Shown here: positions 38,822-53,686 of the stretch, one piece after another
Layout of the letters: every line of letters begins with the position of its first letter
Position numbering within the stretch: the stretch's first letter is position 1
DNA from: Chloroflexota bacterium
GTDB taxonomy: Bacteria; Chloroflexota; UBA11872
DNA: 64,000 nucleotides
Assembly: GCA_965219705.1 (NCBI GenBank)
Contig: OZ244789.1
Span: 2,221,627 to 2,285,626 of the forward strand
Reading direction: 5' to 3'
Made by a program: the position numbers and the translations under genes
Notes under the pieces: model-generated
What the model was told of the DNA's origin: nothing
What the model saw: the letters and a program-made list of their open reading frames with translations, nothing else
Databases searched by the model: none

Positions 38822-38990
38822 GGGCGGCCTAGTGCTCCCGAGGTATGCGGTGGTGCATCGGACCGGATATTTCGAGCAACTCTCACAGGATCGGCAGTGT
38901 CTGAGGTTCGGCTGAGGAGCTTCGGACGACCATAACTCAGAGACGGCGGTGCGCGGCAGGCACGCACCGCCGTCTCGTCATGAGCCGGTG

Positions 38991-40538
38991 CTACTCTTCC
39001 GCTTCCTCGTAGAGGTCGTCGAGAAGCAGCTGGCCTTCGGCCGCGGCATCGTTGAGCGCCTGTTCGGGTGAGGCCTGATCCGTCATGACCGCCTGGTACA
39101 TGGGCGTGTTGACCGCGCGCAGTGCAAAGTATCCAGGCTGCAAGACATCGATGGCGGTGTACTTGCCCATGCGGCGCATGAAGTCCATGTATGGGTTGCC
39201 CGCGAATAGGTCACCCACCGATCGGCGAGTGGGCAGGTTATTCGTCGCCAGCGCCGGTATGCGTTGATTTTCGGTGTTGCTCAAAAAGCGCACCCACTCG
39301 ACAGTGGCCTGAAGACGGTTGTCGTCTTCCCATTGCCACAAGGCGTGCATTTGGCTCAAGCTGAACTGGTGGCCCGAGTTGTCGCCTTCGAACGGATAGT
39401 TCATCGGGTAAACGTCAATTTCGTCGGCGCTCGCCTGGCCTTCGGCGATCCAATCCGTGTACCTCTGGCCTGAGCCGTGGTGGCCTTGGACGAACGCCGT
39501 CTGGCGGCGAATGAACTTCTGCTCGGTATCACCCCAACCCAGCGTGGGCGAATCGGGACTGATGAGGCCCTCGTGGAACATGTCCGAGAGATAGGTCATC
39601 CCCGTGACGCCCTCCGGGCTGTTGAAGGTGTATTGGCGGCCGGAGCCTGACATCATCTTGGCGCCGCGCCCCCACAGGAACGAGTGCCGATAGTAGTCAC
39701 CAGATCCTTCGCTCATGTTGAAGGAAATTGCGTGGCGGCCTGCATCAGGGTCGGTTACGGCGCGGCAGGCCTCGAGAAACTGCTCGTAGCTCCAATTCCG
39801 ATCGCCCTCGGTCGGGAGCAGGTCGGCGGCTCCGGCCTCCTCGAAGAGGCGGCGATTGGAAACGAGCGAAGTGCCCGTCACAAACTGCGGGATTCCGTAG
39901 CGCTTTCCGAGCACCTCACCCTGCTCAAGACCCAAGAAGTCGTCCAGGTCGTCCTGACTGAGAAAGCGGTCAACCGGCTCCAGGAATCCTTCCAGGGCGT
40001 ACCGACGGATGTTCGTCGACCCATCCTGGATCGTGTCCGGGTGCGCAGCTCCGGTGGCCGCTGATATCGCGATCTTGTTCCGATAGTCGTCCCACGGGAA
40101 CATCGCGAAGTTGACCGTGATCTGCGGAAACTGCTTCTGAAACTCGCCGACGATGTACTTCATGTAGTCATCTTCAGCGCCGGACGCCGCTTCCTCGCCT
40201 CGCCCAGTCACGCCTTTCCAATACGGCGGGGTCCAGGTAAGGATGGTCGTGTCAGGCAGCTGCGGCGCCACTTCTTGCACGACGATCTTCTCGACCTGGA
40301 CTTCCTGAGTTACGACGCGCTCAACCTCGACTTCCTTGATGACCTCCTGAGTTACGACCCTGTCAACCGGGACCTCTTTGATCACTTCTTTCGTGACGAT
40401 CACCTCTTGCGTGATGATCTTCTCGACGACTTCGGCCTCGCCGCATGCGGCGAGGATCGTGGCCGCCGCGGTGGCACCGCCGATCAGGAATCCGGCCTGT
40501 AGGAGGCTCCGCCTCGACATCGCGCGCGAATTACGCAT
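38991..40538 (-). CDS. ABC transporter extracellular solute-binding protein (family 1, sugar) with Tat/lipoprotein signal and repetitive tether
   Basis: MRNSRAMSRRSLLQAGFLIGGATAAATILAACGE signal, then about 70 aa of (V/I)TQEV(I/Q)VEK-type repeats, then the SBP_bac_1 body. Start chosen at the Tat-signal Met. Confidence 0.75.
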   Translation of the reverse strand: MRNSRAMSRRSLLQAGFLIGGATAAATILAACGEAEVVEKIITQEVIVTKEVIKEVPVDRVVTQEVIKEVEVERVVTQEVQVEKIVVQEVAPQLPDTTILTWTPPYWKGVTGRGEEAASGAEDDYMKYIVGEFQKQFPQITVNFAMFPWDDYRNKIAISAATGAAHPDTIQDGSTNIRRYALEGFLEPVDRFLSQDDLDDFLGLEQGEVLGKRYGIPQFVTGTSLVSNRRLFEEAGAADLLPTEGDRNWSYEQFLEACRAVTDPDAGRHAISFNMSEGSGDYYRHSFLWGRGAKMMSGSGRQYTFNSPEGVTGMTYLSDMFHEGLISPDSPTLGWGDTEQKFIRRQTAFVQGHHGSGQRYTDWIAEGQASADEIDVYPMNYPFEGDNSGHQFSLSQMHALWQWEDDNRLQATVEWVRFLSNTENQRIPALATNNLPTRRSVGDLFAGNPYMDFMRRMGKYTAIDVLQPGYFALRAVNTPMYQAVMTDQASPEQALNDAAAEGQLLLDDLYEEAEE

Positions 40539-40756
40539 CTCTATCTCCTCCCAAAACGAAGGCTTCGCACGGTAGCGAGGGCCTCCACTCTTTAGAACGC
40601 GACTGTACCACAACTATTCGGTGCCGATTTATATATCGGATAGCGGCCGTCGCGCAGCGGCCTGCCAGCTGTCGCTGGCATGGCACTGTCTCGCAGCTAT
40701 GCGGCGGAACGCGGAGGAGAGGTCTTTGCCCGACCGCTTGGCCGAGAGTGCTTGGG

Positions 40757-43408
40757 CTAGGGTCGGCCGTGGTCGGGCGCCGTGGCGAGGTCGAAGGTGT
40801 GCCGACCGCCCGGCAGCCGACACTGGATGGCGTCCGCCCGCACCGTGATGCCGTGCGCCGAGGATCGTTGCGCATCGCCGAGATCGATCGCCGTCTCGTT
40901 ATGCCGCAGGTGTGAGCCGCTCGTGCGCGTCCAGTCGAGAATGAGGTCGGCGTTGATGGTCTGCGGCACAGCGGCGGTTAGGCTCAGGCGCCCGCCCGCC
41001 CGGCTCCACTCGACCTCGATATTGCCCTTGGGTGTTGGAACCACCCCGCGCGCCCAGTCCAAGTCGGCAGTCTGGGGGTGGATGCGGCACGTCTTGAACC
41101 CCGGACCCGTCGGCGTCACCCCCAGGATGCGCGACACGAGGAGGTAGCCGATCAACGTTCCGCCGGTGTGAACCAGGCTGAGCAGTGGCTTCGGTTGCAC
41201 GAGGTTTACGGTTGTGCGCTCGGCGGCCTCGGCCTCCGTCGTGATGCGCAGGCCGCCGGTGAAGGGGTCCCACAGCTCCCACATGGTGGGAGCATCGGAG
41301 GCCTCCAGCATGGTCTTGAAGCGTGCTCGCGTGAGGTCGAGGGCGGCTTGCGCATGGCCGCGTGCAAACAGCCCGTCCGCGACATACCCGAACCAGAGCG
41401 GCGATGCGCGCAACAGGTCTGGTTCAGGGGCCGCCAGGCGGGCCGCGATTCCGGAAGCCTGCTCATCCGAGGCGATGCCATAGAGCAGCGCGAACCCATT
41501 GGTGAGCTCGCTGGTCACGTCAGATGCGCGTCCCTCCCGATAGGAATCGGCAAACAGCGAGCGTGCTTCGTTCCAATGGAGCGCGCGGAGCGCTGCCCTA
41601 ATGTGGGCGGCGCCGCCCCGCCATCGTTCGGCGTCGCGCGCCGCGCCCATTTCGTCGGCGAGCCAGGCAGCGTCCTCCAGGCCCTTGACGTACAGCGCGT
41701 TGGTGATGAAGCTCGTTCCGCGAAAATCATTGGGCACCCAGTCAATGGTGTTCTGGAGCGGCAGATCGCGCAGGAGCCCCGATGCATCCCGGTGCGGCTC
41801 AAACCAGTCGATTTGGGCGACCACGCTGGGATAGAGCTCCTCGACGACCCACCGCCTACCGGTGAACAAATAGTGGTCGCGAACCCGACTGCTCCACTGC
41901 AGCTGAAACTGTGGATGGACGCCTCGGGTGGGGTTGTTCGGCGGGTACACCATCTGCAGCATCCCATCGCCCCGACCGCTGAGCGGCGCCATGCGCAAAT
42001 ACCGATCCGCCAGCGGCAGGTCGCCGTATGTCGCGAAGAGCATGTAGAGACCGTGCCCGCCGTCCCCGGTCGGCCACGGGACTCGCTCCCGGTAGGCGTC
42101 GCAGACCAACGTGTCCTCCATGTGCAGATATGTTGTATCCACACAGGCCCGCCAAAGTTTCGATAACATTGCATCTGAACAATTGACGTTTCCCCGCTCA
42201 TCAGCCGGATATACATACTCATTAACCGAGACCGACTCGATGGTCAATGGTTGGTAATTGCTGCGCACCGTCAACTGGAGATAGCGAAACTGCTTATACT
42301 CTGACACTTCCCATGTCTGATGGCCATCCCGCGCGATGTATCGGTCACCGTAGCGTACGGCCGGTGGAATCCGTCCGGCCTGTATTTGTTGCCCGTACGT
42401 CATGTCAAGTATGGCTCCCCTTTGCGCCCGCATTCGGACGCGTGGAAAGCCGAACACCTGGCGACCGAAGTCAAGGAGAATGTAAGGAGCTCGCAGGCCT
42501 TTGCCCTCAACGAACCGGCTCTGAAACGTAGCCACGGCATCGCCGCCATGCAAGAGTTCGTCCACATCCACCATGCTCGAATGCTCGTGTGGAAAGTGAG
42601 GTTCCGCGCCCATCAATTCGGGAATGTCGACCTGCCCGGGAAGTCCGAGATCGATGAGTTCGCCGGCTTCAATGACACGGACAGGAAAACGGGTTCGTTC
42701 CAAGAGCATGGGAAGCTCACGGGCTTCGAGCAAAAACCATTCCAAGTCGCTTGTGGGCAGCTCCCATGCGCGCTCCCAGTCCGAGTCATCGAAGCTGACG
42801 CTCATCCAGTGGCTGGGATCGACGTTGGCATTGAAGACCTCAGTGCTGCCGAGCAGTGAGTTGATCAACCGCACGGATCGATTCCATGCCTGGGCTGGGC
42901 GAAGCCTCCACGTGTCATCGCTTCCGACCACCGTCTTCGATCCTGAGGCCGCCGTGACGTCGAGTTGGACCCACAGGCCGGCTCGCTCGCCAATCGAGTA
43001 GCTGCCTCCCGTCCAGCTTCCCCATCCTTCTCCGAGGAGCGGAGATTCGTAGAAGTACTGCGTCACCGCGCGGGGCTCGCCTCGAGCCGGCATGCCGTAG
43101 TGGTACGCGCGCACGCCGATGACGTTTGCACCTTTCTGAAGACTCGCGGCCACGTCGTACGTGTCGTAGCTCTTCCGTCGTGGATCGCTGCGGGCCGGGC
43201 CGCGCCCTAGATATCGTCCGTTGACGTATAGGACATAGCGATCTGAAGCCGTGATGTGCAGTAGCGCTGACGTTGGTTTATCGTCGAGGATGAAGGTCTT
43301 CCGCGCGTACAGAAAAAAATGGTATGGCTTCGCTTCACCCGTGCACCAAATCCATTGACCATCCCATTGGCGTACGGACTTCTGCGGCGGGCGCGAATTG
43401 GAACTCAT
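40757..43408 (-). CDS. alpha-L-rhamnosidase, glycoside hydrolase family 78
   Basis: About 880 aa. N-terminal WIW...YVNGRYLGRGP (Bac_rhamnosid N-domain), central six-hairpin catalytic region with WELWDP-type motifs, C-terminal beta-sandwich. Confidence 0.8.
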   Translation of the reverse strand: MSSNSRPPQKSVRQWDGQWIWCTGEAKPYHFFLYARKTFILDDKPTSALLHITASDRYVLYVNGRYLGRGPARSDPRRKSYDTYDVAASLQKGANVIGVRAYHYGMPARGEPRAVTQYFYESPLLGEGWGSWTGGSYSIGERAGLWVQLDVTAASGSKTVVGSDDTWRLRPAQAWNRSVRLINSLLGSTEVFNANVDPSHWMSVSFDDSDWERAWELPTSDLEWFLLEARELPMLLERTRFPVRVIEAGELIDLGLPGQVDIPELMGAEPHFPHEHSSMVDVDELLHGGDAVATFQSRFVEGKGLRAPYILLDFGRQVFGFPRVRMRAQRGAILDMTYGQQIQAGRIPPAVRYGDRYIARDGHQTWEVSEYKQFRYLQLTVRSNYQPLTIESVSVNEYVYPADERGNVNCSDAMLSKLWRACVDTTYLHMEDTLVCDAYRERVPWPTGDGGHGLYMLFATYGDLPLADRYLRMAPLSGRGDGMLQMVYPPNNPTRGVHPQFQLQWSSRVRDHYLFTGRRWVVEELYPSVVAQIDWFEPHRDASGLLRDLPLQNTIDWVPNDFRGTSFITNALYVKGLEDAAWLADEMGAARDAERWRGGAAHIRAALRALHWNEARSLFADSYREGRASDVTSELTNGFALLYGIASDEQASGIAARLAAPEPDLLRASPLWFGYVADGLFARGHAQAALDLTRARFKTMLEASDAPTMWELWDPFTGGLRITTEAEAAERTTVNLVQPKPLLSLVHTGGTLIGYLLVSRILGVTPTGPGFKTCRIHPQTADLDWARGVVPTPKGNIEVEWSRAGGRLSLTAAVPQTINADLILDWTRTSGSHLRHNETAIDLGDAQRSSAHGITVRADAIQCRLPGGRHTFDLATAPDHGRP

Positions 43409-43843
43409 GATGGCGTCACCATATTGCTTCGTGCATTTTCCGGTTCCCAAGAATATCGCTAAGCGCCGTCGACCGAGAAACTGCGGTGAGGGTTAGCGAG
43501 CTTGATCACTGGCTCGTCTCGGCTGCGCACCGCGCATATAGCTGGGACCATGTTCCATGGGAGCGACCGGCGATGTCAACTCTGATCGGACGAAGGATGT
43601 CGGCGTGCTCGTGGGTTTCGGAGCCTGACGCTGCCGGCCCTGCCGACTGTTTCCACGTTGACGAATCGTGGCCTGTTAGTTAACGTTCTTGCGGGCCGGT
43701 TTGGAGGCGGGCGCTCGGGCTCGACGCGAGGTCGCCATGCGCAGCCGGATCGGCGAGGTAAGGAACGGCTTTTGCCGAACAGTTCTGTCCTTGCCTGACA
43801 CCGCGGCGCTGCTGCGGCATCGGCAGGGCGGGGAGCTTGCTGT

Positions 43844-44944
43844 ATGGCCAGCGTCACGCTCGACCGCGTCTCGAAACGTTTTGGCGATGTTGTCGCCGTC
43901 GATGACGTGTCTATCGAGGTTCAGGATCGGGAGTTTCTCGTGCTTGTCGGGCCCTCGGGCTGCGGCAAGTCCACCACGCTGCGCATGGTCGCGGGACTCG
44001 AGGAGCTGACCGGGGGCTCCATCTATATCGCCGACCGCCTGGTGAATGACGTGCCGCCCAAGGACCGCGACATCGCCATGGTGTTTCAGAGCTACGCCCT
44101 GTATCCCCACATGAGCGTCTACGACAACCTGGCGTTCGGGTTGAAGCTGCGCAAGACGCCCAAGGCCGAGATTCGGCGGCGGGTGGCCGAGGCCGCCGAC
44201 ATGCTGAACATCAGCGAGCTGCTGGAGCGGAAGCCGCGCGCGCTGTCCGGCGGACAGCGGCAGCGCGTGGCGGTCGGACGGGCCATCGTGCGCGACCCCG
44301 CCGTGTTCCTGATGGATGAGCCGCTGTCCAACCTGGACGCCAAGCTGCGCGTGCAGACGCGGGCTGAGCTGATCCGCCTGCACGAGCGCTTGCAGGCCAC
44401 GGTGATCTACGTGACGCACGATCAGATGGAAGCCATGACGATGGGGTCGCGCATCGCGGTGCTGCGCGACGGCGTCTTGCAGCAGCTCGGACCGCCGCAG
44501 GACGTCTACGCCTCGCCCAGCAACGTGTTCGTCGGCGGCTTCATCGGCAGCCCGGCCATGAATTTCTTCGACGCGCACATCTCGGGTGAGGGCGGCTTGT
44601 GGGTGGAGACGGAGACCTTGCGCGTCGCCGTGCCGCCGGATCGGCGCGAGGCCGTCGCACCGCACGTCGGCAAAGACGTCATCTTCGGTATTCGTCCGGA
44701 GAACATCGCCGACCCGCAATTCTCGGCGGGCGGCGCGAAGGGCGAGATGACCATCACCGCGACGGTCGATGTCATGGAGCCGCTTGGCAGCGAGGTCATC
44801 CTCTACATGCTCGCGGGCTCCGACTCGTTCGTCGCCCGCGTCGACCCCCGCACCGTGGCGCAGGCCAATCAGTCATTCGAGCTCGCCTTCGAGATGGACC
44901 GCATGCACCTGTTCGACCGGGCGACGCAGGAGGCGATTGCGTAG
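43844..44944 (+). CDS. ABC sugar transporter ATP-binding protein, MalK/UgpC/MsmK type
   Basis: Walker A GPSGCGKST, Q-loop, signature LSGGQRQR, Walker B FLMDEPLSNLD, C-terminal TOBE/MalK regulatory domain. Confidence 0.9.
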   Translation: MASVTLDRVSKRFGDVVAVDDVSIEVQDREFLVLVGPSGCGKSTTLRMVAGLEELTGGSIYIADRLVNDVPPKDRDIAMVFQSYALYPHMSVYDNLAFGLKLRKTPKAEIRRRVAEAADMLNISELLERKPRALSGGQRQRVAVGRAIVRDPAVFLMDEPLSNLDAKLRVQTRAELIRLHERLQATVIYVTHDQMEAMTMGSRIAVLRDGVLQQLGPPQDVYASPSNVFVGGFIGSPAMNFFDAHISGEGGLWVETETLRVAVPPDRREAVAPHVGKDVIFGIRPENIADPQFSAGGAKGEMTITATVDVMEPLGSEVILYMLAGSDSFVARVDPRTVAQANQSFELAFEMDRMHLFDRATQEAIA

Positions 44945-44990
44945 CGGCTCGAATGTCGGGACGGAGCATTCGGTTCGCGCGTTTCGCGCG
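44642..44990. repeat. direct repeat copy 1 (3' 300 bp of the MalK-type gene plus about 45 bp downstream)
   Basis: About 85-90% identical to 47092..47440. Confidence 0.7.
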
Positions 44991-45002
44991 GGTCGGCGCG
45001 AC

Positions 45003-46976
45003 TCAACAGAAAGGCAGATTGAGCGCGCCAAGGTCATTATTCGCGACGCGTTGCAATGCACCTGGGATGCATCCCGTGAAGTGATTGCCGCCGGCGAGCC
45101 AGAGCCATCGCAGGTTGGCGAGGTGGCCCAGTTCCGGTGGAATCGACCCACTGAGCCGGTTGTTTCGGAGCAGCAGAAATTGCAGGTTGGTGAGGCGGCC
45201 GAGTTCAGGCGGGATCTCGCCGGTCAACAGGTTGTCGTGGAGCCGAATGTCTCCGAGCCTAGTGTTGGCCAACTCGTGCGGGATCCCTCCACTCAGCTGG
45301 TTTCCCTGGAGGTACAGGGCTGACAAGTTGGCGAGGCGGCCCAGCTCGGGCGGGATCTCCCCATCGAGCCGGTTGTCCCCGAGCGAGAGAATCCCCAGGT
45401 TGGTGAGGCGGCCGAGTTCAGACGGTATCGTCCCGCGCAACAGATTGTCGTTGAGCGAGAGCTCGTACAGGTTGGTGAGGTGAGCTAGCGCGAGCGGGAT
45501 AGTCCCGCTCAGCCAATTCCCGAATAGCCTGAGCGAAACCAAGTTAGAAAGCTGACTGAGCTCGGGCGGGATCTCGCCACTCAGATGGTTTTTTGCGAGC
45601 GACAGAAGCCTCAAGTTGGCGAGGCGGCCCAATTCGGGCGGGATCGTCCCGGTGAGCAGGTTTTCGTCGAGAGAGAGCTCGTACAGGTTGGGGAGGTCCG
45701 CCAGCCAAGCGGGGACGCTTCCACTCAGTTCGTTGTAGTCGAGCGCGAGGTCCGACAGCTTGGCAAGATGTCCCAGTTCGGGCGGAATCTCTCCGGTTAG
45801 CTGATTCCCCTGGAGCCTGAGCGATGTCAGGTAGGTGAGGCGGCCCAGCTCGGGCGGGATCACGCCATGCAGCCGGTTCCACGACAGACTCAGGGATTCC
45901 AGGTTTAGGAGACGGCCCAGCCCGGGCGGGATTTCGCCTTGCAGCTGGTTCTGGTCGAGGGTCAGCACCCTTAGGTATGCGAGTTGGCTCAACTCGGGCG
46001 GCAGCTTCCCAGTCAGCTGATTTTCTCCGAGCCGTAGTTCCGTGACCAGGCTGCGGCTCGTGCTCACGCCGTACCAGGTGGTGAGGGGCATGTCGCTCAG
46101 CCAGTTGGTGTTGTTCGCCCAGTTCGCCCCGTCGGTGGCGTAGTAGAGCGCGACCAGCGCGGCCCGGTCGGACAGCACGGCCAGGAATCGCTCGGCCTCG
46201 CCGCGCTCGAGCGGCGCCTTGGCCGCGTCCGGAATTATCACGTTGCTCAGCTTCTTCACCTTGTCCGGCACGTTCTGCAGGTTCACCCGCCCCACCGTGG
46301 TCCCCGGCGCCGACACGTTCCAGATCACGAACACTGTCCGCTGCGCCCGCAGCATCTGCAGGCCCCGCGGGTTGCCGTTGACCTCCCGCTCCTCGTAGCT
46401 GATCGGCAGCCCGTAGAGGTTCAGCCAGTCCGGCTCGCTGAGGAAGCGCTCCTTGATGGCCGCGTTCTGCTCCAGCAGCGCCAGGTGGTTCCGGGTGATG
46501 GTGGCGAAGTCGGCCCCTCGATCGGCTTCCAAGACCTGATGCGGCGGGACGTTGGGCAGCTCCACCTCGGGATAGCGATTCGCCAGCACGTCGAGGGTGT
46601 TGTAGTAGTTCATCCGGTACTTGCCGGGGTCCCACTGCAGGATCACCTTCTGGAAGGCCTGCAGGGTGAAGGGGCCGCTCATCCAGCGCTGGCTGATGGG
46701 ATAGCCGATGGCCTGGAGGTCGCGCTGGCGCACGAAGTCCCACAGCGGCACGTCGTTGGCGTTAGTGACGGCGTAGCCATCGTCCGGCTGGAGCGTGTCG
46801 CCGCCGGTGATGGTGAAGAGGCAGCCGTCCTCGAGGGTTACGCCCTCGCACTCCAGCGCCGCCGCTGACGGCCAGATTGTCAGCGTGGCCACGGCGGTGA
46901 CGGTCAGTACCGCCAGCGCCACGCGCAGCCGGCGCCAACCATTGCGCACTCGGAGTCTTGACACGAGGCCCCTCAC
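45003..46976 (-). CDS. secreted leucine-rich-repeat protein with plant-specific-type 24-residue LRRs
   Basis: 657 aa. Signal peptide, about 270-aa N-terminal domain of unknown function, LRRNT-like cap (ALVALYYATDGANWANNTNWLSD...W.GVS), about 13 repeats of LxxLxxLxLxxNxLSGxIPPELGxLxN, C-terminal FTGCIP...LPFC cap. Confidence 0.8.
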   Translation of the reverse strand: MRGLVSRLRVRNGWRRLRVALAVLTVTAVATLTIWPSAAALECEGVTLEDGCLFTITGGDTLQPDDGYAVTNANDVPLWDFVRQRDLQAIGYPISQRWMSGPFTLQAFQKVILQWDPGKYRMNYYNTLDVLANRYPEVELPNVPPHQVLEADRGADFATITRNHLALLEQNAAIKERFLSEPDWLNLYGLPISYEEREVNGNPRGLQMLRAQRTVFVIWNVSAPGTTVGRVNLQNVPDKVKKLSNVIIPDAAKAPLERGEAERFLAVLSDRAALVALYYATDGANWANNTNWLSDMPLTTWYGVSTSRSLVTELRLGENQLTGKLPPELSQLAYLRVLTLDQNQLQGEIPPGLGRLLNLESLSLSWNRLHGVIPPELGRLTYLTSLRLQGNQLTGEIPPELGHLAKLSDLALDYNELSGSVPAWLADLPNLYELSLDENLLTGTIPPELGRLANLRLLSLAKNHLSGEIPPELSQLSNLVSLRLFGNWLSGTIPLALAHLTNLYELSLNDNLLRGTIPSELGRLTNLGILSLGDNRLDGEIPPELGRLANLSALYLQGNQLSGGIPHELANTRLGDIRLHDNLLTGEIPPELGRLTNLQFLLLRNNRLSGSIPPELGHLANLRWLWLAGGNHFTGCIPGALQRVANNDLGALNLPFC

Positions 46977-47091
46977 TCAGCGGCAGGCAGCCCGGCGGCC
47001 CGCCACACACCGCCCATCCAACCCGGCAGCGTCAATCTACGTCAAGCGCCGGTCCCTGTCGCACCATGCTAGGGGGCGTGGGCCCCTGAAC

Positions 47092-47398
47092 CGGCGCGAG
47101 GCCGTCGTGCCCTATGTCGGCAAAGACGTGATCTTCGGCATTCGACACAAGAACTATCGACGACCCGCAGTTCTCGGCCGGCGGCGTGCAGAATGAAACG
47201 ACCATTACGGCGACGGTGGACGTCATGGAGCCGCTGGGCAGCGAGGTCATCCTCTACATGCTGGCGGGATCCGATTCATTCGTCGCCCGCGTCGACCCGC
47301 GCACCTCGGCGCAGGCCAACCAGCCGTTCAAGCTCGCCTTCGAGATGGACCGAATGCACCTGTTCGACCGCATGACGCAGGAGGCGATCGCGTAGCGG
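47092..47398 (+). pseudogene. degenerate duplicate of the 3' end of the MalK-type ATPase gene (direct repeat copy 2, repeat extends to about 47440)
   Basis: Translation fragments ...EAVVPYVGKDVIFGIR... and ...TITATVDVMEPLGSEVILYMLAGSDSFVARVDPRT.AQANQ.F.LAFEMDRMHLFDR.TQEAIA match MalK residues about 270-366, with frame-disrupting indels, no start and no N-terminal ATPase domain. Confidence 0.7.
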
Positions 47399-47445
47399 TT
47401 CGAATCTTGAGACGGCGCGACGGTTAGCCCTCGTTTCGCGGACCT

Positions 47446-48294
47446 CTACGGCTTGCAGAACGGCAGCCCAAGCGTGTCGAGGTCGCTGAGCAGTACGTGG
47501 CTAAACGCATTCTCGTGCAACCCCTGGGGAATGCAGCCCGTGAACTGGTTGCCGCCGAACTCCAGCATTTGCAGGTAGGGGATGTTCCCCAACTCAGGCG
47601 GGATCTCGCCACTCAACTGGTTATTGTCGAGCCGCAGATTACTCAGGTTGGCGAGACGGCCCAACTCGGGCGGGATCTCGCCACTCAGTTGGTTCTCCTG
47701 GAGCAGCAGCGTATCCAGAGCGGCAAGACTGCCCAGCTCGGGTGGGATCTCGCCACGCAACTCGTTTCCATTGAGGAACAGCAGTACCAGATTGGTGAGA
47801 TGGCCCAACTCGGGTGGAATCTCCCCGCGCAACTGGTTCTCGTGGAGCCACAGCGACGTGACTCGGCCGCTGGGATCAGTGTTGACGAGGTTCCATCGAC
47901 CGAGCGGTGCCTCGCTGAGCCAGTTGCTGTTGCGCTTCCAGTTTGGCCCGTCGGTCGCGTGGTAGAGCGCCACCAGTGCGTCCCTGTCCGAGACAAGGGC
48001 GGGTGTGGACGTCGCGGCCGGCGCTCTAGCCGAGTCGGGAGTGGGTGAGGGCGCTGGAGTGAGCGTCGCGACCGGCGCCGCAGACCTGGCAGCAGTGCGA
48101 GTCGGCGCGGGCATCGCCATCGGCGTCGCAGACCCTGTTGCAATTGATGTGGGTGCAGGCGCCGGGATCGCCGCCGCTACGGCCTGTTCGGGAGCAGGCG
48201 CCGGCCCCGCCGCCTGAGGTATGTCAGAGGAAGCGTCGCACGCGACGGCTGCGAGCACGAGCATGACCATGAGAAAGGCGGAACGGAGCGTCAT
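47446..48294 (-). CDS. secreted leucine-rich-repeat protein (short paralog of 45003..46976)
   Basis: 282 aa. Signal peptide, Ala/Pro-rich linker, LRRNT-like cap (ALVALYHATDGPNWKRNSNWLSEAPLGRW), 5 plant-type LRRs, same FTGCIP...LPFC C-terminal cap. Confidence 0.75.
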   Translation of the reverse strand: MTLRSAFLMVMLVLAAVACDASSDIPQAAGPAPAPEQAVAAAIPAPAPTSIATGSATPMAMPAPTRTAARSAAPVATLTPAPSPTPDSARAPAATSTPALVSDRDALVALYHATDGPNWKRNSNWLSEAPLGRWNLVNTDPSGRVTSLWLHENQLRGEIPPELGHLTNLVLLFLNGNELRGEIPPELGSLAALDTLLLQENQLSGEIPPELGRLANLSNLRLDNNQLSGEIPPELGNIPYLQMLEFGGNQFTGCIPQGLHENAFSHVLLSDLDTLGLPFCKP

Positions 48295-48497
48295 TGGGCC
48301 GAGTCTGCAAGAGGCCGATCACGCGCCCAACCCTATGATAGCGAGCCGGCAGGCGGCGAATGCGCCCGTGTCGAGACACCAGTGGCCATCGGGGGCATGG
48401 GATCGCTGCGGTAATCTTGGGGCAGATGTGCCTCGCCAGGGCGCGGCGTCGCTGGCGCCGCCACGCCTCGTGCGGTGCCCGGAGTCTCACCCGGCCC

Positions 48498-49979
48498 ATG
48501 GTAACTATGCTCCCGCGGCAACGCTCGCGCCGGGCCCTGCTGCTCGTGGCGGCGGCGGTCAGCGCGCTGCTCGTTGCCCACGATCTCCTCCGGATCAATG
48601 GTTTTGTGTATGGGTCGGCGGCCTCATACCTCGATGGGATGGACGTTCGCAACTGGGGGAGCTCGGGCCACACCCTGGCCTTCATCGTGGGCCTGCCCAC
48701 GTGGGGCAAGCTGTCGGATCTCTACGGGCGGCGACCGCTGTGGATGGCCTCGCTAGCCGTGGTGATGATCGGCGCCCTCCTCGCCGGGACCAGCCAGGTG
48801 ATGGAGCAGCTCATCATCGGTCGCATCGTGCAGGGTCTCGGGAGCGGCGGTCTGGTGGCCATGGCGTTGGCGCTGATCGCGGACCTTTTCCCGCCGGTCT
48901 CGCGGGCCAAGTGGCAGGGGGCCTGGACCGCGCTCTTCGGCCTCTTGGTGGTGTTGCTGCTCGCTGTGTTCAACAGCGTCGTTCCCTGGACGCAGGACTG
49001 GTGGCGTGGGGAGTTCTTCACCTTCCTCTGGCTGGGCGGCTTCGCGGCGCTTGCCGCCTGGTTCGGTCTGCCCGCAAGGCCGGCCGGCGCGCGACCAACG
49101 TTCGACGTCGCCGGCGTGTGCGCGGCGACCGCAGCCATGACCCTGCTGCTGCTGGCGATCAGTTGGTCCGGCGGGGCCTTGCCATGGGGATCGGCGCAGA
49201 ACGTCGGGCTGCTGCTGGGCGCCGCCGCCGCGCTTGGGGCGCTGGTCGTCGTCGAGCGGCGGGCCGTCGAACCCGTGGTCGACTGGGGTTTCCTGAAGAA
49301 CCGAATCTATGTCGTCGCGCTCGTCTTGATGTTCCTGCTCGGGGCAACTCGCCTAGGCGTCGGGACGCTCATCTGGCCGTTCTTGCAGCATTCAGGCACT
49401 GCCGTTCTCACGGGTCCGGTGACGGCGCCACTCGTGCTGGCGGCGGTTCTGAGTGCCGTTGTGACCGGGCTGATCATGTGGCGCACGGGCCGCTACAAGT
49501 TGCTGTTGATTGCGCTGTTCGCCATCGGCACGGCGGGCGCCGTGCTGCTGACGCTCATGGAGGCATCGACGACCGAGGTTGACCGCGCGCGCAACATGGC
49601 GATTACGGGGCTGGGATTCGGCGGCCTGTCGGTAGTGCTGTTCGTTGTCGCCCAGAACGCCTTGCCCGACCGCAACCTGGGCGCGGTGACGGCCGGATTG
49701 CTGGTCGTTGGGTGGCTGGGAGCCTTCATCGGTGCCAGGCTCAGGCACGTATCCGCCCTCGGGGATTTGGGTCCCGATCCGCAGGCCTTCGGCCAACAAA
49801 TGCAGCGGTCGCTCCCACTCCTTGCCCAGTCGTGGGCCAGCCTTGTTGGCGGCACGGTCGTGGTTCTAGCTCTAGGACTGCTCATCACGGTGGTGTTGCC
49901 GGAGATTCCCCTGCGCGGGCGGCAGGAGGACGACGCAGCCGCGGCCGAGGCGGAAGCGCCACCGACTCCCAGTCCCTGA
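48498..49979 (+). CDS. MFS transporter (14-TM drug:H+ antiporter-like)
   Basis: GKLSDLYGRRP (MFS motif A region), about 14 predicted TM helices. Start chosen at MVTMLPRQRSRRALLLVAAA; the ORF-track start at 48360 is an Arg-rich extension. Confidence 0.75.
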   Translation: MVTMLPRQRSRRALLLVAAAVSALLVAHDLLRINGFVYGSAASYLDGMDVRNWGSSGHTLAFIVGLPTWGKLSDLYGRRPLWMASLAVVMIGALLAGTSQVMEQLIIGRIVQGLGSGGLVAMALALIADLFPPVSRAKWQGAWTALFGLLVVLLLAVFNSVVPWTQDWWRGEFFTFLWLGGFAALAAWFGLPARPAGARPTFDVAGVCAATAAMTLLLLAISWSGGALPWGSAQNVGLLLGAAAALGALVVVERRAVEPVVDWGFLKNRIYVVALVLMFLLGATRLGVGTLIWPFLQHSGTAVLTGPVTAPLVLAAVLSAVVTGLIMWRTGRYKLLLIALFAIGTAGAVLLTLMEASTTEVDRARNMAITGLGFGGLSVVLFVVAQNALPDRNLGAVTAGLLVVGWLGAFIGARLRHVSALGDLGPDPQAFGQQMQRSLPLLAQSWASLVGGTVVVLALGLLITVVLPEIPLRGRQEDDAAAAEAEAPPTPSP

Positions 49980-50056
49980 CCGAGATCCCACGCGCTGTCC
50001 GAGCCTTGCGGCCGAACGCTACGCTGGGGCGTTGCTCCCACCATCCCCGAGGCGCC

Positions 50057-51580
50057 ATGTTTCTGGCCTACGCTCCCGATCGGATCGCCAAGGACATCGG
50101 CGCCGATCGCCAGCTCTTCATCGACGACGACGTGGTCGCGGTGGTCAAGAACGTCACCCGCCGCTTCCATCACCCGGTCAAGCACCCGGCCAACCCGGTG
50201 ATCGAAAACGATCAGCCGTGGGAGGTGGTGCCCTACTTCCGCAGCTGCTCGTTCAACGTGCTGCGCGATCCGGAGGACGGCCTCTTCAAGTGCTGGTACG
50301 AGGACTATCCGAACTACTGGGGCAGCAAGGGCGTGCCGCGGCTAGGGAGTCGCATCTACTACGCCCAGTCGACCGATGGCATCACCTGGGAGAAGCCGCT
50401 GCTGGGGCGCCACGCCATCGACGGCCGCGACACCAACACCCTCATCGTCTCGCCCGATGCCAACGACGAGTCCACCCTGTTCCCGTCGATCATGCTGGAC
50501 CCGACCGAGACGGACCACAGCCGCCGGTTCAAGAAGGTCCACGTGTACCGCGTCGGCAGACGCGGGATGGGGCTCGGTTTAGCGATGTCGGGCAACGGCC
50601 TGGACTGGACCCGACATCCCGCGAACCCGATCATCCCGGAGTGGGCGGCCGACTGCCAGGTGCTGACCTACGACCGGATCGACGAGAAATACGTGCTCTG
50701 GGGCCGCTACGGCGACTCCGCGGGTGAGGCCTGGCACCCCGAATTCGACCACTGGTTCGCCCCGGTGTGGCCCAGCCAGCCCGAGGGCGTCTGGGGGACC
50801 CGCCGCCGGGTCTGGCGGCTGGAGAGCCAAGACCTCGTCAACTGGTCACCGGCTGAGTTGGTCTTCGAGCCGGGCCCGGCGGACAACCTGGACGATGGGC
50901 ACTACAGCTTCGTCCCCTGGCGGGCGGGCGAGATGCACCTGGGCATCCTCAACGTGCTGCACACGGTGGACGACACGCTGGACCTGTACCTGCTGTACAG
51001 CCGCGACGGGCGCCAGTGGCATCGGTTCACCGAGCACCGGCCGTTCATACCGCGCGGTCCTGAGGGCGCCTACGACGCGCTGGACAACGAGACGACGGTG
51101 CAGCCGCTCGTGGTCGGGGATGAGCTGTGGTTCTACTACGGCGGCAACAACGTGCATCACGACTGGTGGATCATCGGCAGCGGGCAGGGGCTCGACGTGC
51201 CGGAGGTCCACGACCCGAGCATCGCCGCGAATGGCCACCACCTGTGCCTGGCGACGCTGCGTTACGACGGCTACGTGTCGCTCGACGCCACGGTGCGCGA
51301 GGGCTACGTGGAGACCAAGCCGGTGAGGCCGACCGGCGGCCAGCTCTTCATCAACGCCCGCTGCGAGCCCGGCGGCTATGTCGAGGCCGAGGTGATGGAT
51401 CCCTTCAACGACGTGTGGCCGGGCTTCGAGCGCGCCGACTGCCAGCGATTCGAGGGCGACAGCATCAGCCACAACCTCACCTGGTCGGGCGGCGCTCCCG
51501 GTGACCTGCGGGGCGGCGTCAAGCTGCGCTTTCACCTGCGGCGCGCCGAGCTCTACAGCTTCCGCTTTGGCCGCGACTAA
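50057..51580 (+). CDS. hypothetical protein, possible beta-propeller glycoside hydrolase fold
   Basis: 507 aa, start MFLAYAPD. High-GC3 coding signal and repeated W/Y/D-rich blade-like segments. Family not identified. The ORF-track start at 49712 lies inside the MFS gene. Confidence 0.5.
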   Translation: MFLAYAPDRIAKDIGADRQLFIDDDVVAVVKNVTRRFHHPVKHPANPVIENDQPWEVVPYFRSCSFNVLRDPEDGLFKCWYEDYPNYWGSKGVPRLGSRIYYAQSTDGITWEKPLLGRHAIDGRDTNTLIVSPDANDESTLFPSIMLDPTETDHSRRFKKVHVYRVGRRGMGLGLAMSGNGLDWTRHPANPIIPEWAADCQVLTYDRIDEKYVLWGRYGDSAGEAWHPEFDHWFAPVWPSQPEGVWGTRRRVWRLESQDLVNWSPAELVFEPGPADNLDDGHYSFVPWRAGEMHLGILNVLHTVDDTLDLYLLYSRDGRQWHRFTEHRPFIPRGPEGAYDALDNETTVQPLVVGDELWFYYGGNNVHHDWWIIGSGQGLDVPEVHDPSIAANGHHLCLATLRYDGYVSLDATVREGYVETKPVRPTGGQLFINARCEPGGYVEAEVMDPFNDVWPGFERADCQRFEGDSISHNLTWSGGAPGDLRGGVKLRFHLRRAELYSFRFGRD

Positions 51581-51660
51581 CCCCGCCGCCGGCGCGGAGA
51601 CTTCGCCACCCGGCGCGTTCGGTACCGTGACGGCCTGAGCGGCGAGGACGGGAGAACGCC

Positions 51661-52602
51661 ATGACGAATCGAGAACTCGGGGCGACGGGCGCGCGCGTGA
51701 GCAGCCTCTGCATGGGGTGTTGGGAGATCGGTGGCTTGTCGTGGGGCCCGATGTCCTCGCTCGACGCGGTGGACCTCGTGCGCGCGGCGTTTGACGCGGG
51801 CGTCACGACCTTCGATACCGCCGAGCAATACGGCGGAGGCCGCAGCGAGACCGTGCTCGGCAAGGCGCTGGAAGGCATACGCCACGAGACGGTGATCGTC
51901 ACCAAGGTCGGGTACCTGCCCGGCACTGACGGCGCGCAGGACCTTCACTCGGACTACGAGCCCCAGGACTTCTCACCGTCCCGCATTCGCCAGGCGTGCG
52001 AGCTGTCGTTGCGGCGTCTTCGCTCCACCTACCTTGACGTGTTGCTGTTGCACGACCCGCCGTTGCATATCGTGCGGCAAGCGGCCCCATTCGAGGCGCT
52101 GCAGCGCTTGCAGCAGGCCGGCAAGATCCGCTGGTGGGGCGTGTCGGCGTCTCCCGAGGCTGCCGCCGAGGCCATCCGACGCTGGGACGCGCCGGTCGTC
52201 GAATCCCCATTCAGTCTCGCGGATGACGGCGTCGCCAAGCACGTGCTCCCCCTGGCCGCCGAGCGCGGCACGGGCGTGCTGGCGCGGTCGCCCTTCGGCA
52301 GCGGCGTGCTCATGCTCGACGAGGCGGCGGTCGACCGCCTTCCGGCTACCGACTGGCGCCGCCGTCCGGGCTTCCGCGAGCGGATCCGCACATCGGCCGG
52401 CCTGCGCCAACGCCTGCACGCGGCGGCGGACGCGCGTGACGAACCGCCGCACGAGACGGCCATCCGGTACGTGCTCGGTCACGAGGCGGTGTCCTGCTCC
52501 ATCGTCGGGATATCGAGCACCCAGGACATCCAGCGCAACGCCCCCGCGGCTGAACCGCCCTACCTGAGCACCGAGGAGATCGGCGAACTCAGGGGAGCCT
52601 AG
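51661..52602 (+). CDS. aldo/keto reductase
   Basis: LGATGARVSSLCMGCWEIGG, FDTAEQYGGGRSE, catalytic Tyr/Lys/His context of the AKR family. Confidence 0.85.
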   Translation: MTNRELGATGARVSSLCMGCWEIGGLSWGPMSSLDAVDLVRAAFDAGVTTFDTAEQYGGGRSETVLGKALEGIRHETVIVTKVGYLPGTDGAQDLHSDYEPQDFSPSRIRQACELSLRRLRSTYLDVLLLHDPPLHIVRQAAPFEALQRLQQAGKIRWWGVSASPEAAAEAIRRWDAPVVESPFSLADDGVAKHVLPLAAERGTGVLARSPFGSGVLMLDEAAVDRLPATDWRRRPGFRERIRTSAGLRQRLHAAADARDEPPHETAIRYVLGHEAVSCSIVGISSTQDIQRNAPAAEPPYLSTEEIGELRGA

Positions 52603-52617
52603 CGGCGCGAAGCTTCC

Positions 52618-53448: not shown

Positions 53449-53686
53449 GGCCGTCCATCGCGGTGTGGCTTGATCCCGGGCAGTCTACGCAAGCGGACGG
53501 TGGCTGCGGCGGGCGTTGCCCTTGACGGCCGCGGGTGCGCGATTGTCTTACGCGCCCACCAACGAACGCGCTGTGAGTCCGCTGACGCAACGTCGACGCA
53601 CCATGCCGACCAATCTTCCACGGCGCCTATAGTTTGCTCAGGCGGGCCTGATGGCCGCCCGCCGGTGACCGAGGCTGGGTGCGTCC

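Follow-up and report, generated by a model that had tools for sequence, protein, structure and literature searches.

In the 64,000-nucleotide stretch of Chloroflexota DNA analysed here (the window), the 3' end of a malK gene recurs as a truncated fragment beyond a convergent LRR gene, and the join that created the repeat is shared with several related lineages. The locus probably preserves what is left of an old tandem segmental duplication affecting the malK 3' end, in which the gene of the second unit has been replaced by an LRR and MFS gene pair (LRR2-MFS) at a site prone to recombination. L-numbers denote related assemblies, contigs or loci and P-numbers denote database proteins. A refers to the malK tail and B to the fragment. 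The features of the locus are as follows.

43844..44944, plus strand: intact MalK/MsiK-type ABC ATPase gene, 366 aa (Pfam ABC_tran, OB_MalK, TOBE_2)
44632..45002, plus strand: repeat copy A, malK codons ~264-366, stop codon and 58-nt spacer to the LRR1 stop codon
45003..46976, minus strand: LRR1, 657 aa, 13 LRRs of 24 residues and cap (from ORF, Pfam and alignment)
46977..47081, minus strand: LRR1 upstream region ('up'), right-hand end of the duplicated unit
47081..47082, no strand: duplication junction, unit end joined to malK codon ~264 (microhomology CGTG..C.CC)
47082..47395, plus strand: repeat copy B, malK 3' fragment, codons ~264-366 and stop codon, frameshifted
47396..47454, plus strand: remnant of unit 2, LRR-type spacer up to the LPFC codons
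47446..48294, minus strand: LRR2, 282 aa, with lipoprotein signal, Pro/Ala linker, N-cap, 4-5 LRRs and cap
47455..50012, no strand: putative replacement module of LRR2 and MFS gene, by sequence orthologous to a conserved pair elsewhere
48360..49979, plus strand: divergent MFS transporter gene, start uncertain
50057..51580, plus strand: right-flank gene, 507 aa, no Pfam match

The repeat, its junction and its age

In a repeat search, positions 44705-44967 match 47156-47418 at 86% identity and positions 44632-44704 match 47082-47154 at 79%. Copy A as a whole (44632-45002) recurs at 47082-47445 with 84-86% identity. MAFFT and local alignment concur with the search, giving 63 nt at 82.5% followed by 263 nt at 86.3%, and the similarity that the earlier note had seen by eye between 44642..44990 and 47092..47440 is confirmed by all three. 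The copies are spaced 2450/2451 nt apart, so copy B is longer by one base, a T at 47155 that shifts the frame. The likeness extends beyond the malK stop codon across a spacer of 58 nt in A and 50 nt in B. This spacer alignment scores 17, compared with 6.9 +/- 1.9 for dinucleotide shuffles (z = 5.3), and none of 500 shuffles reaches 17. When the spacer after fragment B is compared with the copy A spacer of L083, three of 500 shuffles reach the score. Beyond the spacers, similarity of 65-88% continues into the 3' ends of both minus-strand LRR genes.

RNA folding of the spacers and the LRR1 leader gives no stability above that of shuffles (z -0.7 to 0), so no obvious RNA structure accounts for the conservation of spacer and leader. 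Rfam has no match over 43000-50500. Scans of 44800-48500 return zero promoter-like sites and one terminator-like site, which lies within LRR1 and is outnumbered by those in shuffled sequence.

The product of the gene at 43844-44944 contains the ABC_tran domain and the OB_MalK/TOBE C-terminal domain of MalK-type ATPases, and the last ~104 codons of the gene form repeat copy A. Other assemblies carry an identical protein. Its best relatives among GTDB representative genomes are 75% identical and come from Chloroflexota MAGs. No LRR gene lies downstream of malK in these relatives, and they serve as a distant outgroup only, being of no use for synteny.

The two copies are direct, head-to-tail and adjacent, as in a tandem segmental duplication, and support the duplication of a unit of ~2.45 kb. 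The unit begins at malK codon ~264, runs through the stop codon and the spacer, and takes in the convergent gene together with ~115 nt of its upstream region. At 47081|47082 (...GGGGGCGTGGGC|CCCTGAACCGGCGCGAGG) the distal end of the unit is joined to its proximal start, forming a novel junction with a short microhomology to the malK sequence CGCCGTGCCGCCGGATCGG. This join of the LRR1 upstream region to malK codon ~264 bears out the tandem unit of about 2.4 kb that had been proposed from the sequence.

The same 'up'|malK join is present in L083, L084 and L090-L101, and the window's 'up' sequence is 96% identical to that of L083 and 100% identical to that of L090. In L083, L085 and L086, the second copy of 'up' continues into the unique right flank. 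Unit 2 is complete in L083, L084 and L092-L097. Its gene encodes a 714-aa protein in L083, which shares the 255-aa N-terminal domain but ends in another C-terminal domain (HExxH), and a 794-aa protein with the N-terminal domain and LRRs in L090. Three parts of unit 2 are absent from the window, namely the body of its gene, the N-terminal domain and the second copy of 'up', and the spacer at 47396..47454 is all that remains of the gene of unit 2. The junction microhomology is short and has diverged since the event, which counts against the explanation preferred here.

Orthologues in the window and L083 differ by dS 0.25-0.33 (~0.28). Because the junction is common to lineages at this distance, the duplication is not recent, as the earlier note had supposed; L090 and L091 even have the T-insertion frameshift. 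The divergence between A and B (dS 0.50) cannot date the duplication, a use that had also been suggested for the repeat alignment, because divergent alleles have taken the place of the functional copy and the fragment moves along with exchanged cassettes.

LRR genes and the proposed history of the locus

LRR1 consists, in order, of a signal/TM anchor, a domain of ~220 aa (residues 36-263), an LRR N-cap, 13 plant-type LRRs and a C-cap (FTGCIP...LPFC). Databases place the start of this gene at 46964 (P0013, 653 aa), and an exact-protein look-up with the longest-ORF start returns no record. The 24-residue pattern LxxLxLxxNxLxGxIPxxLGxLxx is found in both LRR1 and LRR2, and the LRR genes match Pfam LRR_1, LRR_8, LRR_4 and LRR_14. 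Neither protein contains the LRRNT_2 cap (PF08263) at E <= 0.01; a conserved N-cap, DRxALVALYxATxGxNWxxNxNWLS, is present and does not fit the PF08263 model. More than 7000 proteins match LRR1 at E <= 1e-5, and those among them that are named come from Chloroflexi MAGs. Across 17 LRR1 homologues, the A2 consensus terminates in ...NQFTGCIP...LGLPFC, and the FTGCIP...LPFC cap occurs in every LRR relative whose sequence was inspected. The cap shared by LRR1 and LRR2 is thus no evidence of duplication, for which it had been taken.

The duplicated gene belongs to a family in which a conserved N-terminal domain is followed by variable C-terminal domains (LRR, RCC1, HExxH). This N-terminal extracellular domain is unannotated but widespread (788 cluster representatives), and in relatives it is fused to secreted and wall-acting enzymes. 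Pfam has no match to it, to the HExxH C-terminal domain of the 714-aa L083 protein or to the 507-aa flank protein. Specifically, LGFP (PF08310) does not match the domain in the window at E <= 1 and matches weakly in 4 of 60 relatives (best E 0.0033). A structure predicted from a diverse 60-sequence alignment has a pLDDT of 96 and 6swz as its top structural match, with a low TM-score (0.29) and 13% sequence identity; a model from 17 close homologues is unusable (pLDDT 37). By the former model, the closest solved fold would be the LGFP-repeat cell-wall-binding domain, a distant match of low similarity, and the domain may anchor these proteins to the wall.

LRR2 is 55% identical to LRR1 and 76% identical, over 218 aa and including the cap insertion, to P0182, a 239-aa lipoprotein LRR. 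It has the traits of the P0182/P0263 cluster: a lipoprotein signal, an N-cap, LRRs, the ...FTGCIPQ.LHE.AF.HVLL.DLD.LGLPFC cap and a divergent MFS gene. The MFS protein is 73% identical in amino acids to its counterpart. At the DNA level, LRR2-MFS is 83-86% identical to the MFS/LRR pair of L089 over 47455-48025 and 48510-50012. L089 and L102-L105 (at least five assemblies) have this pair in the same divergent arrangement, within a gene neighbourhood that is conserved among them and differs from that of the window (cysS-SpoU-FolB-MT). These sequence comparisons make LRR2 and its MFS neighbour orthologues of a conserved lipoprotein-LRR/MFS pair that has its place elsewhere, and the idea that LRR2 had lost an N-terminal domain and most of its repeats does not hold.

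The homology of the LRR2 region to L089 begins only at the LPFC codons. The ends of the module coincide with breaks of synteny with L083, and synteny with relatives restarts ~45 nt upstream of the ATG of the right-flank gene. LRR2-MFS is absent from this position in L083, L085, L086 and L092-L098. LRR2 itself was found neither by exact-protein look-up (longest-ORF start) nor by a search among homologues. The pair could have been inserted here, or it could have been lost here in the relatives and gained elsewhere.

We infer the following order of events and recombination mechanism. An illegitimate join at the level of microhomology would have linked the region ~115 nt upstream of a convergent surface-protein gene to malK codon ~264. 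Its product would have been malK, the gene and its upstream region, followed by the malK 3' fragment, the gene copy, the second upstream region and the right flank. This duplication would predate the split of the window lineage from the L083, L090 and L092 lineages. The locus would afterwards have been a recombination hot spot, bounded by the malK 3' sequence and by the conserved stretch that codes for the N-terminal domain, which would provide the homology for exchange, loss or replacement of what lies between. In the window, unit 1 would have retained LRR1, and unit 2 would have been reduced to the malK fragment with its frameshift and ~55 nt of spacer. The unit-2 gene, its upstream region and ~230 nt of flank would have been replaced by a foreign LRR2-MFS two-gene module, with the left crossover in the conserved LPFC cap codons and the right end 45 nt upstream of the next gene.

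Exchange between strains and the malK fragment

At least four architectures occur at this site among relatives. Only one unit is present in L085. In L086 there is an independent malK-tail repeat of 201 nt, whose fragment is cut at another point and fused to unrelated sequence, and the 347-nt spacer in L086 resembles neither the window nor any of the retrieved loci. L096 alone carries an rve-type IS insertion at this site. In L090, the fragment is embedded in a five-gene array of N-terminal-domain genes. The fragment's stop codon is followed by three different sequences.

Identity profiles across the locus are mosaic. Among L083-like strains, the flanks are 93.6-95.9% identical, compared with 98.4-100% for the cassette block, 99.4-99.7% for fragment B and 100% for 'up' and both spacers. 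Between the window and L090, 'up' is 100% identical, fragment B 97.1% and the adjoining coding sequence 84.5%. In the first 129 nt of the repeat, copy A of the window, copy A of L083 and the B type form three roughly equidistant allele classes (78-83%). The nominally orthologous A copies are 79% identical in these 129 nt, compared with 93% over the rest of malK.

Near-identical cassettes between flanks that differ by 4-6%, the variety of architectures, the independent malK-tail duplication in L086 and the fragment within the L090 array all favour a wider reading, put forward here tentatively. The malK tail and the anchor-domain coding sequence may be the homology arms of a cassette-exchange locus in uncultivated Chloroflexota, at which wall-anchored eukaryote-like proteins (LRR, RCC1, HExxH) would be swapped, stacked and swept between strains and species. 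The malK fragment would then be both a footprint and a reusable landing pad. Expression of the TOBE fragment as a small regulatory protein is a less likely addition to this reading.

A doubtful account of how the repeat arose is Campbell-type single-crossover integration of circular or foreign DNA carrying a malK 3' fragment and a cassette, in which case the repeats would have been divergent alleles from the start. The mainly synonymous divergence between A and B is as expected between functional alleles, there are three equidistant allele classes, cassettes demonstrably move between strains, and L085 has the structure expected after excision by A/B recombination. However, the first 'up'|malK junction would still require an illegitimate join, the unit is without an integrase and no circular form was observed. 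An in-place duplication whose copy A was later replaced by another allele would leave the identical end structure, so the two routes are indistinguishable from the data.

Fragment B lacks codons 1-263 and carries the +1 frameshift at 47155, so it is both truncated and disabled. Its malK frame is otherwise free of stop codons over 104 codons. Databases list the residual 69-aa ORF at 47186-47395 as a gene (P0258). It matches Pfam TOBE and TOBE_2 only and is therefore not a MalK-type ATPase in its own right. The corresponding ORF in the L083 fragment is 88 aa. Fragment B of the window is 92.4-92.6% identical to that of L083 and 84.9% identical to copy A of the window, and its conservation between the window and L083 equals that of bona fide coding sequence. 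Differences between the two B copies at the three codon positions number 3, 3 and 1 in the first 129 nt, which is neutral-like, and 3, 1 and 12 in the last 183 nt, the shared part of the ORF, which is coding-like, and both the codon-position and the omega tests on the fragment are confounded by recombination and hitch-hiking. In the window, four derived GC->AT non-synonymous changes and the frameshift lie in the first 129 nt, a signature of decay.

It is unlikely that fragment B is a functional small gene for a stand-alone TOBE/MalK regulatory-domain protein (69 aa, or 88 aa in L083), such as a decoy or modulator of MalK-dependent regulation. The ORF over the barrel is retained in at least seven sequence variants on more than 20 contigs, gene callers annotate it and Pfam recognizes it as TOBE. 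Purifying selection would yield the mostly synonymous pattern in the shared ORF, and among L083-like strains the fragment varies less than does the tail of functional malK. However, diversity is equally low in the non-coding neighbours, which fits hitch-hiking and not selection on the ORF. In the window and L090, the T insertion interrupts what in L083 is an ORF of 88 aa, and the fragment of a close relative has a non-conservative G->R change (in LAGSD) and an M->I change. The scan finds no promoter-like site and inspection of the sequence no convincing ribosome-binding site, and the fragment in L086 is cut elsewhere and fused to unrelated sequence.

Fragment B is most likely a non-functional scar, a lack of function that we infer from these features. 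It is well preserved because it hitch-hikes with recently exchanged cassette DNA and recombines with functional malK alleles. Gene conversion from malK was considered and rejected as the sole cause of the low omega, since conversion resets divergence yet cannot lower pairwise omega below ~0.5 and fragment B of the window is nearer to that of L083 (92.6%) than to copy A of the window (84.9%).

The history given in the earlier note, a recent in-place tandem duplication of the malK 3' end and an LRR gene followed by decay of the second malK copy and truncation of LRR2, is very improbable. The repeat and its head-to-tail geometry are real, both downstream genes are LRR genes with the same cap type, and the spacer after fragment B is homologous to that after malK. 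Against this, LRR2 has its own lipoprotein signal and is closer to P0182 (76%) than to LRR1 (55%), the LRR2-MFS pair has orthologues elsewhere, and the junction is common to lineages differing by dS ~0.28. The omega between A and B is 0.17, a mostly synonymous divergence, whereas decay in place predicts at least 0.53 (p ~0.003). The fragment has the frameshift and truncation of a pseudogene, and decay in place is not supported as the sole cause of its divergence.

There is next to no chance that faulty assembly, by chimeric joining or by mis-collapse, produced the repeat. The difficulty in principle of assembling repetitive LRR DNA is all that speaks for it, whereas a circular contig of 3.28 Mb (113x) and more than 10 contigs obtained from other samples and with other assemblers show the same junction and gene order, contig L001 matches the window at 99.9% across malK and into LRR1, and the copies differ by 14-16%, so an assembler cannot confuse them.

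Relation to known systems

Bacterial tandem segmental duplications form at short homologies or microhomologies and later diverge or collapse by RecA-dependent unequal recombination. The locus resembles them in its head-to-tail units, its novel join, the truncated gene at the join and a single-unit variant (L085) that looks like a collapse product. Unlike typical tandem duplications, it is old and fixed across several lineages rather than transient, its cargo has been exchanged between copies (LRR, HExxH domain, LRR2-MFS) and its truncated copy is unusually well preserved.

The intact gene, cargo and displaced copy of a 3' end also recall att-site duplications at tRNA, tmRNA and protein-gene 3' ends, and in several contexts the homology stops exactly at the stop codon. 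Unlike in att-site islands, the repeat is at least 313 nt of diverged coding sequence rather than a short identical att core, and the right end is the cargo gene's own upstream region. No integrase or recombinase lies in or beside the unit in the window, where LRR1 is the only gene inside and malK, LRR2 and the MFS gene are the neighbours.

Orphan cassettes of polymorphic surface or toxin loci (Rhs, CdiA C-terminal) are similar in their conserved region with swappable domains, paralogue arrays (as in L090) and leftover gene fragments, and in having cassette DNA that is far less diverged than the flanks. Unlike in these systems, the conserved part is N-terminal here and, by the structure prediction, may resemble a wall-binding anchor. 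In place of toxins, the variable parts hold eukaryote-like repeats or peptidase-like domains, there are no immunity genes, and one homology arm is the tail of a housekeeping gene.

Eukaryotic-like ANK, TPR and LRR proteins are described as a general feature of sponge symbionts, Chloroflexi included (PMC6306507). The locus shares with them plant-type 24-residue LRRs in Chloroflexota relatives and genes beside carbohydrate-uptake genes. Unlike in symbiont LRR proteins, the LRRs here are joined to an anchor domain with a distant LGFP-fold similarity or to a lipoprotein signal. That domain is N-terminal, whereas the LGFP domain of Corynebacterium glutamicum PS1 / mycoloyltransferase A (PDB 6swz) is C-terminal and from another phylum. 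As for the MalK/MsiK regulatory domain, copy A is the OB/TOBE C-terminal part of an intact ATPase and copy B keeps the TOBE barrel sequence, but copy B has no ATPase domain and is frameshifted.

This hypervariable surface-protein locus holds a fossil duplication and the remnant of a gene tail, an ordinary and well-known kind of feature that matters little in itself. It calls for caution in annotation: gene callers label the TOBE remnant of 69 or 88 aa as a gene, and LRR2, which by eye looks like a decayed paralogue, is an intact member of another conserved gene pair. If the organisms are host-associated, the locus would be a plausible generator of surface-protein diversity, built from LRR, RCC1-like and peptidase-like modules.

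The repeated malK end and the duplicated unit

A direct-repeat search over positions 43000-49500 recovered two abutting repeat families, and MAFFT and local alignment agree with this search, with fainter similarity extending further downstream. The repeats and the surrounding genes (ORF list and Pfam) are as follows.

44705-44967 and 47156-47418: repeat family 1, 263 nt, 86% identical, spacing 2451 nt
44632-44704 and 47082-47154: repeat family 2, 73 nt, 79% identical, spacing 2450 nt
43844-44944: complete MalK-type ATPase gene (ABC_tran, OB_MalK, TOBE_2)
45003-46976, minus strand: LRR1, leucine-rich-repeat (LRR) protein, 657 aa
47186-47395: 69-aa ORF (TOBE and TOBE_2)
47446-48294, minus strand: LRR2, LRR protein, 282 aa

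The two spacings indicate that the downstream copy (B) has one base more than the malK 3' end (copy A), a T at 47155. Without this base, the malK frame of copy B is open over 104 codons with no stop. The spacers 3' of the two stop codons (58 nt and 50 nt) are also similar, with a score matched by none of 500 dinucleotide shuffles. The repeat coordinates and identities in the earlier note are thus correct.

When the copy B translation is used as a query, it retrieves short proteins (88, 69, 89 and 167 aa) and not full-length MalK, and the syntenic locus is present in the contigs that encode them. In L083, a circular 3.28-Mb contig with 113x coverage, the gene order is permeases, substrate-binding protein (SBP), GH78-like rhamnosidase, malK (366 aa), LRR gene (778 aa, minus strand), fragment (88 aa), 714-aa gene (minus strand), 507-aa gene and aldo/keto reductase. 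BLAST aligns the window with L083 over 38000-45651 (89.8%), 46209-47395 (87.6%) and 50012-54000 (88.8%). The LRR1 N-terminal domain and its upstream region (46218-47087) also match a second L083 site, the 5' portion of the 714-aa gene, at 82.5%.

The limits of the unit are seen in the alignment of the region upstream of the convergent gene ("up"). In L083 unit 2 and in the related loci L085 and L086, the "up" end ...GGGGCGTGGGCGCC continues into unique flank (TAGGCTGAG...). Unit 1 of the window, of L083 and of the related contig L090 has ...GGGGGCGTGGGC joined instead to CCC(T/C)GAACCGGCGCGAGG, malK sequence starting at codon ~264. At this point malK itself (CGCCGTGCCGCCGGATCGG) has a short CGTG..C.CC motif in common with the other partner. 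The unit therefore consists of malK from codon ~264 to the stop, the spacer, the convergent gene and approximately 115 nt upstream, which bears out the proposed tandem duplication of a malK 3' end with an LRR gene. This type of feature, a relic of segmental duplication, is already known. The join is common to the window, L083/L084, L090/L091 and L092-L101, and the T-insertion frameshift is also present in L090/L091. Orthologous genes of the window and L083 have a dS of 0.25-0.33 and an omega of 0.06-0.14. Because the join predates the split between these two genomes, the duplication is not recent, contrary to what had been suggested.

The genes around the repeat (two ABC permeases, an SBP, a GH78-like rhamnosidase and the MalK-type ATPase) are consistent with a sugar-utilisation locus, as first described. 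MAGs of Chloroflexota or Chloroflexi are the source of the MalK relatives and of the named LRR1 homologues. "Eukaryotic-like proteins" of the LRR, ankyrin and TPR types have been described as a general trait of sponge-associated symbionts, including Chloroflexi (PMC6306507). The G+C content of the window is ~68%. Elsewhere in the window, 24000-28000 forms a low-G+C island (0.51-0.59 vs ~0.68) that was possibly acquired horizontally and may be a module for modification or defence. Pfam matches none of its ORFs (23066-24247, 24244-25977 and 26024-27649), and PADLOC gives only weak matches to them (MTase_II, mad2). A few kb away, the 998-aa product of a plus-strand gene (31966-34962) has AAA_27/AAA_23 at its N-terminus, matches LmuB and mad3 weakly in PADLOC and is possibly an SMC-like defence ATPase.

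The LRR2-MFS module

The window sequence 47396-50011 has no corresponding DNA in L083, L085 or L086. LRR2 has a lipoprotein-type signal (MTLRSAFLMVMLVLAAVAC) at its N-terminus, and a Pro/Ala-rich linker comes next. The signal, the N-cap and the unusual C-cap (...FTGCIPQELHESAFGHVLLTDLDELGLPFC) are all shared with P0182 (239 aa), the best full-length relative of LRR2. LRR2 is 76% identical to P0182 over 218 aa vs 55% to LRR1. In L089, the contig that carries P0182, this gene is divergent to an MFS gene, the same arrangement as in the window, and 47455-48025 and 48510-50012 are 83-86% identical to L089 DNA. The context (cysS, SpoU, FolB, methyltransferase, MFS, LRR, SBP, two GFO/IDH genes and a rhamnosidase-like gene) is conserved in L089 and four other contigs. 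LRR2 with its MFS neighbour thus matches a conserved pair found elsewhere and is not a truncated copy of LRR1, contrary to the earlier note. The FTGCIP...LPFC cap, offered there in favour of a common duplication, is no evidence for one, as it occurs in every LRR relative inspected by sequence. The A2 consensus of 17 LRR1 homologues terminates in ...NQFTGCIP...LGLPFC, and the LRR1 family contains more than 7000 proteins at E <= 1e-5.

Both ends of the module are sharp. L089 homology starts at the LPFC codons (about 47455) and stops ~33 nt past the MFS stop (about 50010), where L083 homology restarts 45 nt 5' of the 507-aa gene ATG (50057). Because the module ends coincide with the synteny breaks, all that persists of unit 2 here is ~55 nt of LRR-type spacer together with the malK fragment. 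The module would have replaced the unit 2 gene body along with its anchor domain (the N-terminal domain shared by LRR1 and its paralogues), the second copy of "up" and approximately 230 nt of flank, with a left crossover that may lie within cap codons common to all these LRR genes. In L090, the gene after the fragment encodes an anchor-domain LRR protein of 794 aa, which probably resembles the original unit 2 gene.

In the window, the MFS gene (48360-49979) and the 507-aa gene (49712-51580) overlap when each is read as its longest ORF. Relatives place the 507-aa gene start at 50057, and comparison suggests a later MFS start (homologue alignment from residue 41). LRR2 with this exact start has no entry in the exact-sequence gene index, and its homology search gave no 100% self-match among the 120 matches listed. 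Unlike LRR2, LRR1 and the 69-aa fragment ORF (P0258) of the same genome are on record; the source annotation may omit LRR2 or call it differently.

The malK fragment

Copy B and the malK tail have a dS of 0.50, a dN of 0.087 and an omega of 0.17 (Nei-Gojobori), with differences by codon position of 9:10:28. When neutral in-place decay of B is modelled with A under selection, the expected pairwise omega is at least ~0.53. The non-synonymous share of the A-B differences is below this expectation (p ~0.003), and simple decay in place, the original explanation, is not congruent with these values.

The wider comparison accounts for the low omega through allele classes, a conserved island and the recent spread of a cassette block. 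In the first 129 nt, window A, L083 A and the B type form three roughly equidistant allele classes (78-83% identity, mostly synonymous). Window A and L083 A are 79% identical here vs 93% over the remaining malK, so the functional malK tail was swapped for divergent alleles in at least one lineage. Fragment B and the adjoining "up" show 92-97% identity in the window-L083 comparison (82-88% alongside) and 97-100% in the window-L090 comparison (84.5% alongside). L083-like strains from different samples have 93.6-95.9% identity in malK-5' and the 507-aa gene and 98.4-100% across the block that runs from the malK-LRR spacer to the 714-aa gene. This block includes fragment B, at 99.4-99.7%, and both spacers and "up", each at 100%. 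The non-coding neighbours of the fragment vary as little as the fragment itself, so the block spread recently by recombination, with the fragment hitch-hiking.

The first 129 nt of the window fragment differ from L083 in a neutral-type pattern ([3,3,1] by codon position) and contain four derived GC->AT replacements and the frameshift. The last 183 nt show [3,1,12], a pattern that would follow from crossovers with functional malK tails being resolved in this part. In a close relative, G->R and M->I changes fall within the residual ORF. Fragment B is very probably a scar, a functional TOBE mini-protein being an improbable alternative, and the A-B distance is unusable for dating the duplication.

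Architectures at the site and the anchor domain

The related loci differ in what lies beside malK or the fragment.

Window: LRR1, fragment, LRR2-MFS
L083 type: LRR778 (778-aa LRR gene), fragment, HExxH-714 (the 714-aa gene; L083 10527-12671, minus strand, unit 2; also in L085 and L092-L099)
L085: single unit, malK followed directly by fragment-type downstream sequence and the 714-aa gene
L086: malK, 331-347 nt of unrelated DNA, an independent 201-nt malK-tail repeat, LRR866
L096, 1480-2397: IS-type transposase gene (rve, HTH_29) between malK and the LRR778 gene, in one strain
L090/L091: fragment between two members of an anchor-domain array of at least five genes, one with RCC1 repeats

The L085 layout is the structure expected after collapse between copies A and B. 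In L086 (9557-10286), the repeat contains the last 185 nt of malK and 16 nt downstream, is 97% identical to its own malK and is a second, independent duplication of the malK tail in another lineage; the ~331-nt spacer matches nothing among the sequences fetched. The array in L090 (1-20210) and L091 consists of same-strand genes of 1067, 1321, 1426, 794 and 1078 aa, including double LRR domains. The orphan malK fragment in this array shares its frameshift with the window and has no malK within 10 kb. In three contexts, the fragment stop codon is succeeded by three different sequences. The anchor-domain coding part of LRR778 (L083 9071-9838 vs L092-L097) is the most variable stretch, with 89.5-95% identity, while adjoining cassette DNA of the same strains is at least 99.4% identical. 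This part has mosaic similarity to the two paralogous units, which suggests gene conversion among paralogous anchor-domain copies.

The anchor domain of LRR1 (46188-46871, minus strand, ~220 aa; relatives P0276-P0421) has no Pfam match, and 788 cluster representatives (50% clustering) were found at E <= 1e-3 in a 1.84-billion-protein library. It is an unannotated yet widespread extracellular domain. Its confidently predicted model (pLDDT 96) is distantly similar to the LGFP-repeat domain of C. glutamicum PS1 (6swz). In relatives it occurs in fusions with many secreted enzymes; the partners recorded are M23 and trypsin-like peptidases, muramoyl-alanine amidases, GH5/GH10/GH113, sortase and M1 peptidase. 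Fold and domain context point to a putative cell-envelope anchor that would present plant-type 24-residue LRRs, RCC1 repeats or an HExxH domain as variable modules. The 714-aa protein of L083 shares its first ~255 residues with LRR1 and continues into a different domain of ~460 aa. This domain, which Pfam does not match, contains the motif HEVGHYYWH and is possibly a new module of metallopeptidase-like type.

The malK site is a recombination hot spot. It is a tentative suggestion that cassettes are exchanged here with the malK tail and anchor-domain sequence as homology arms. In these uncultivated Chloroflexota, the segmental-duplication relic sits in a hypervariable locus of surface-protein cassettes.
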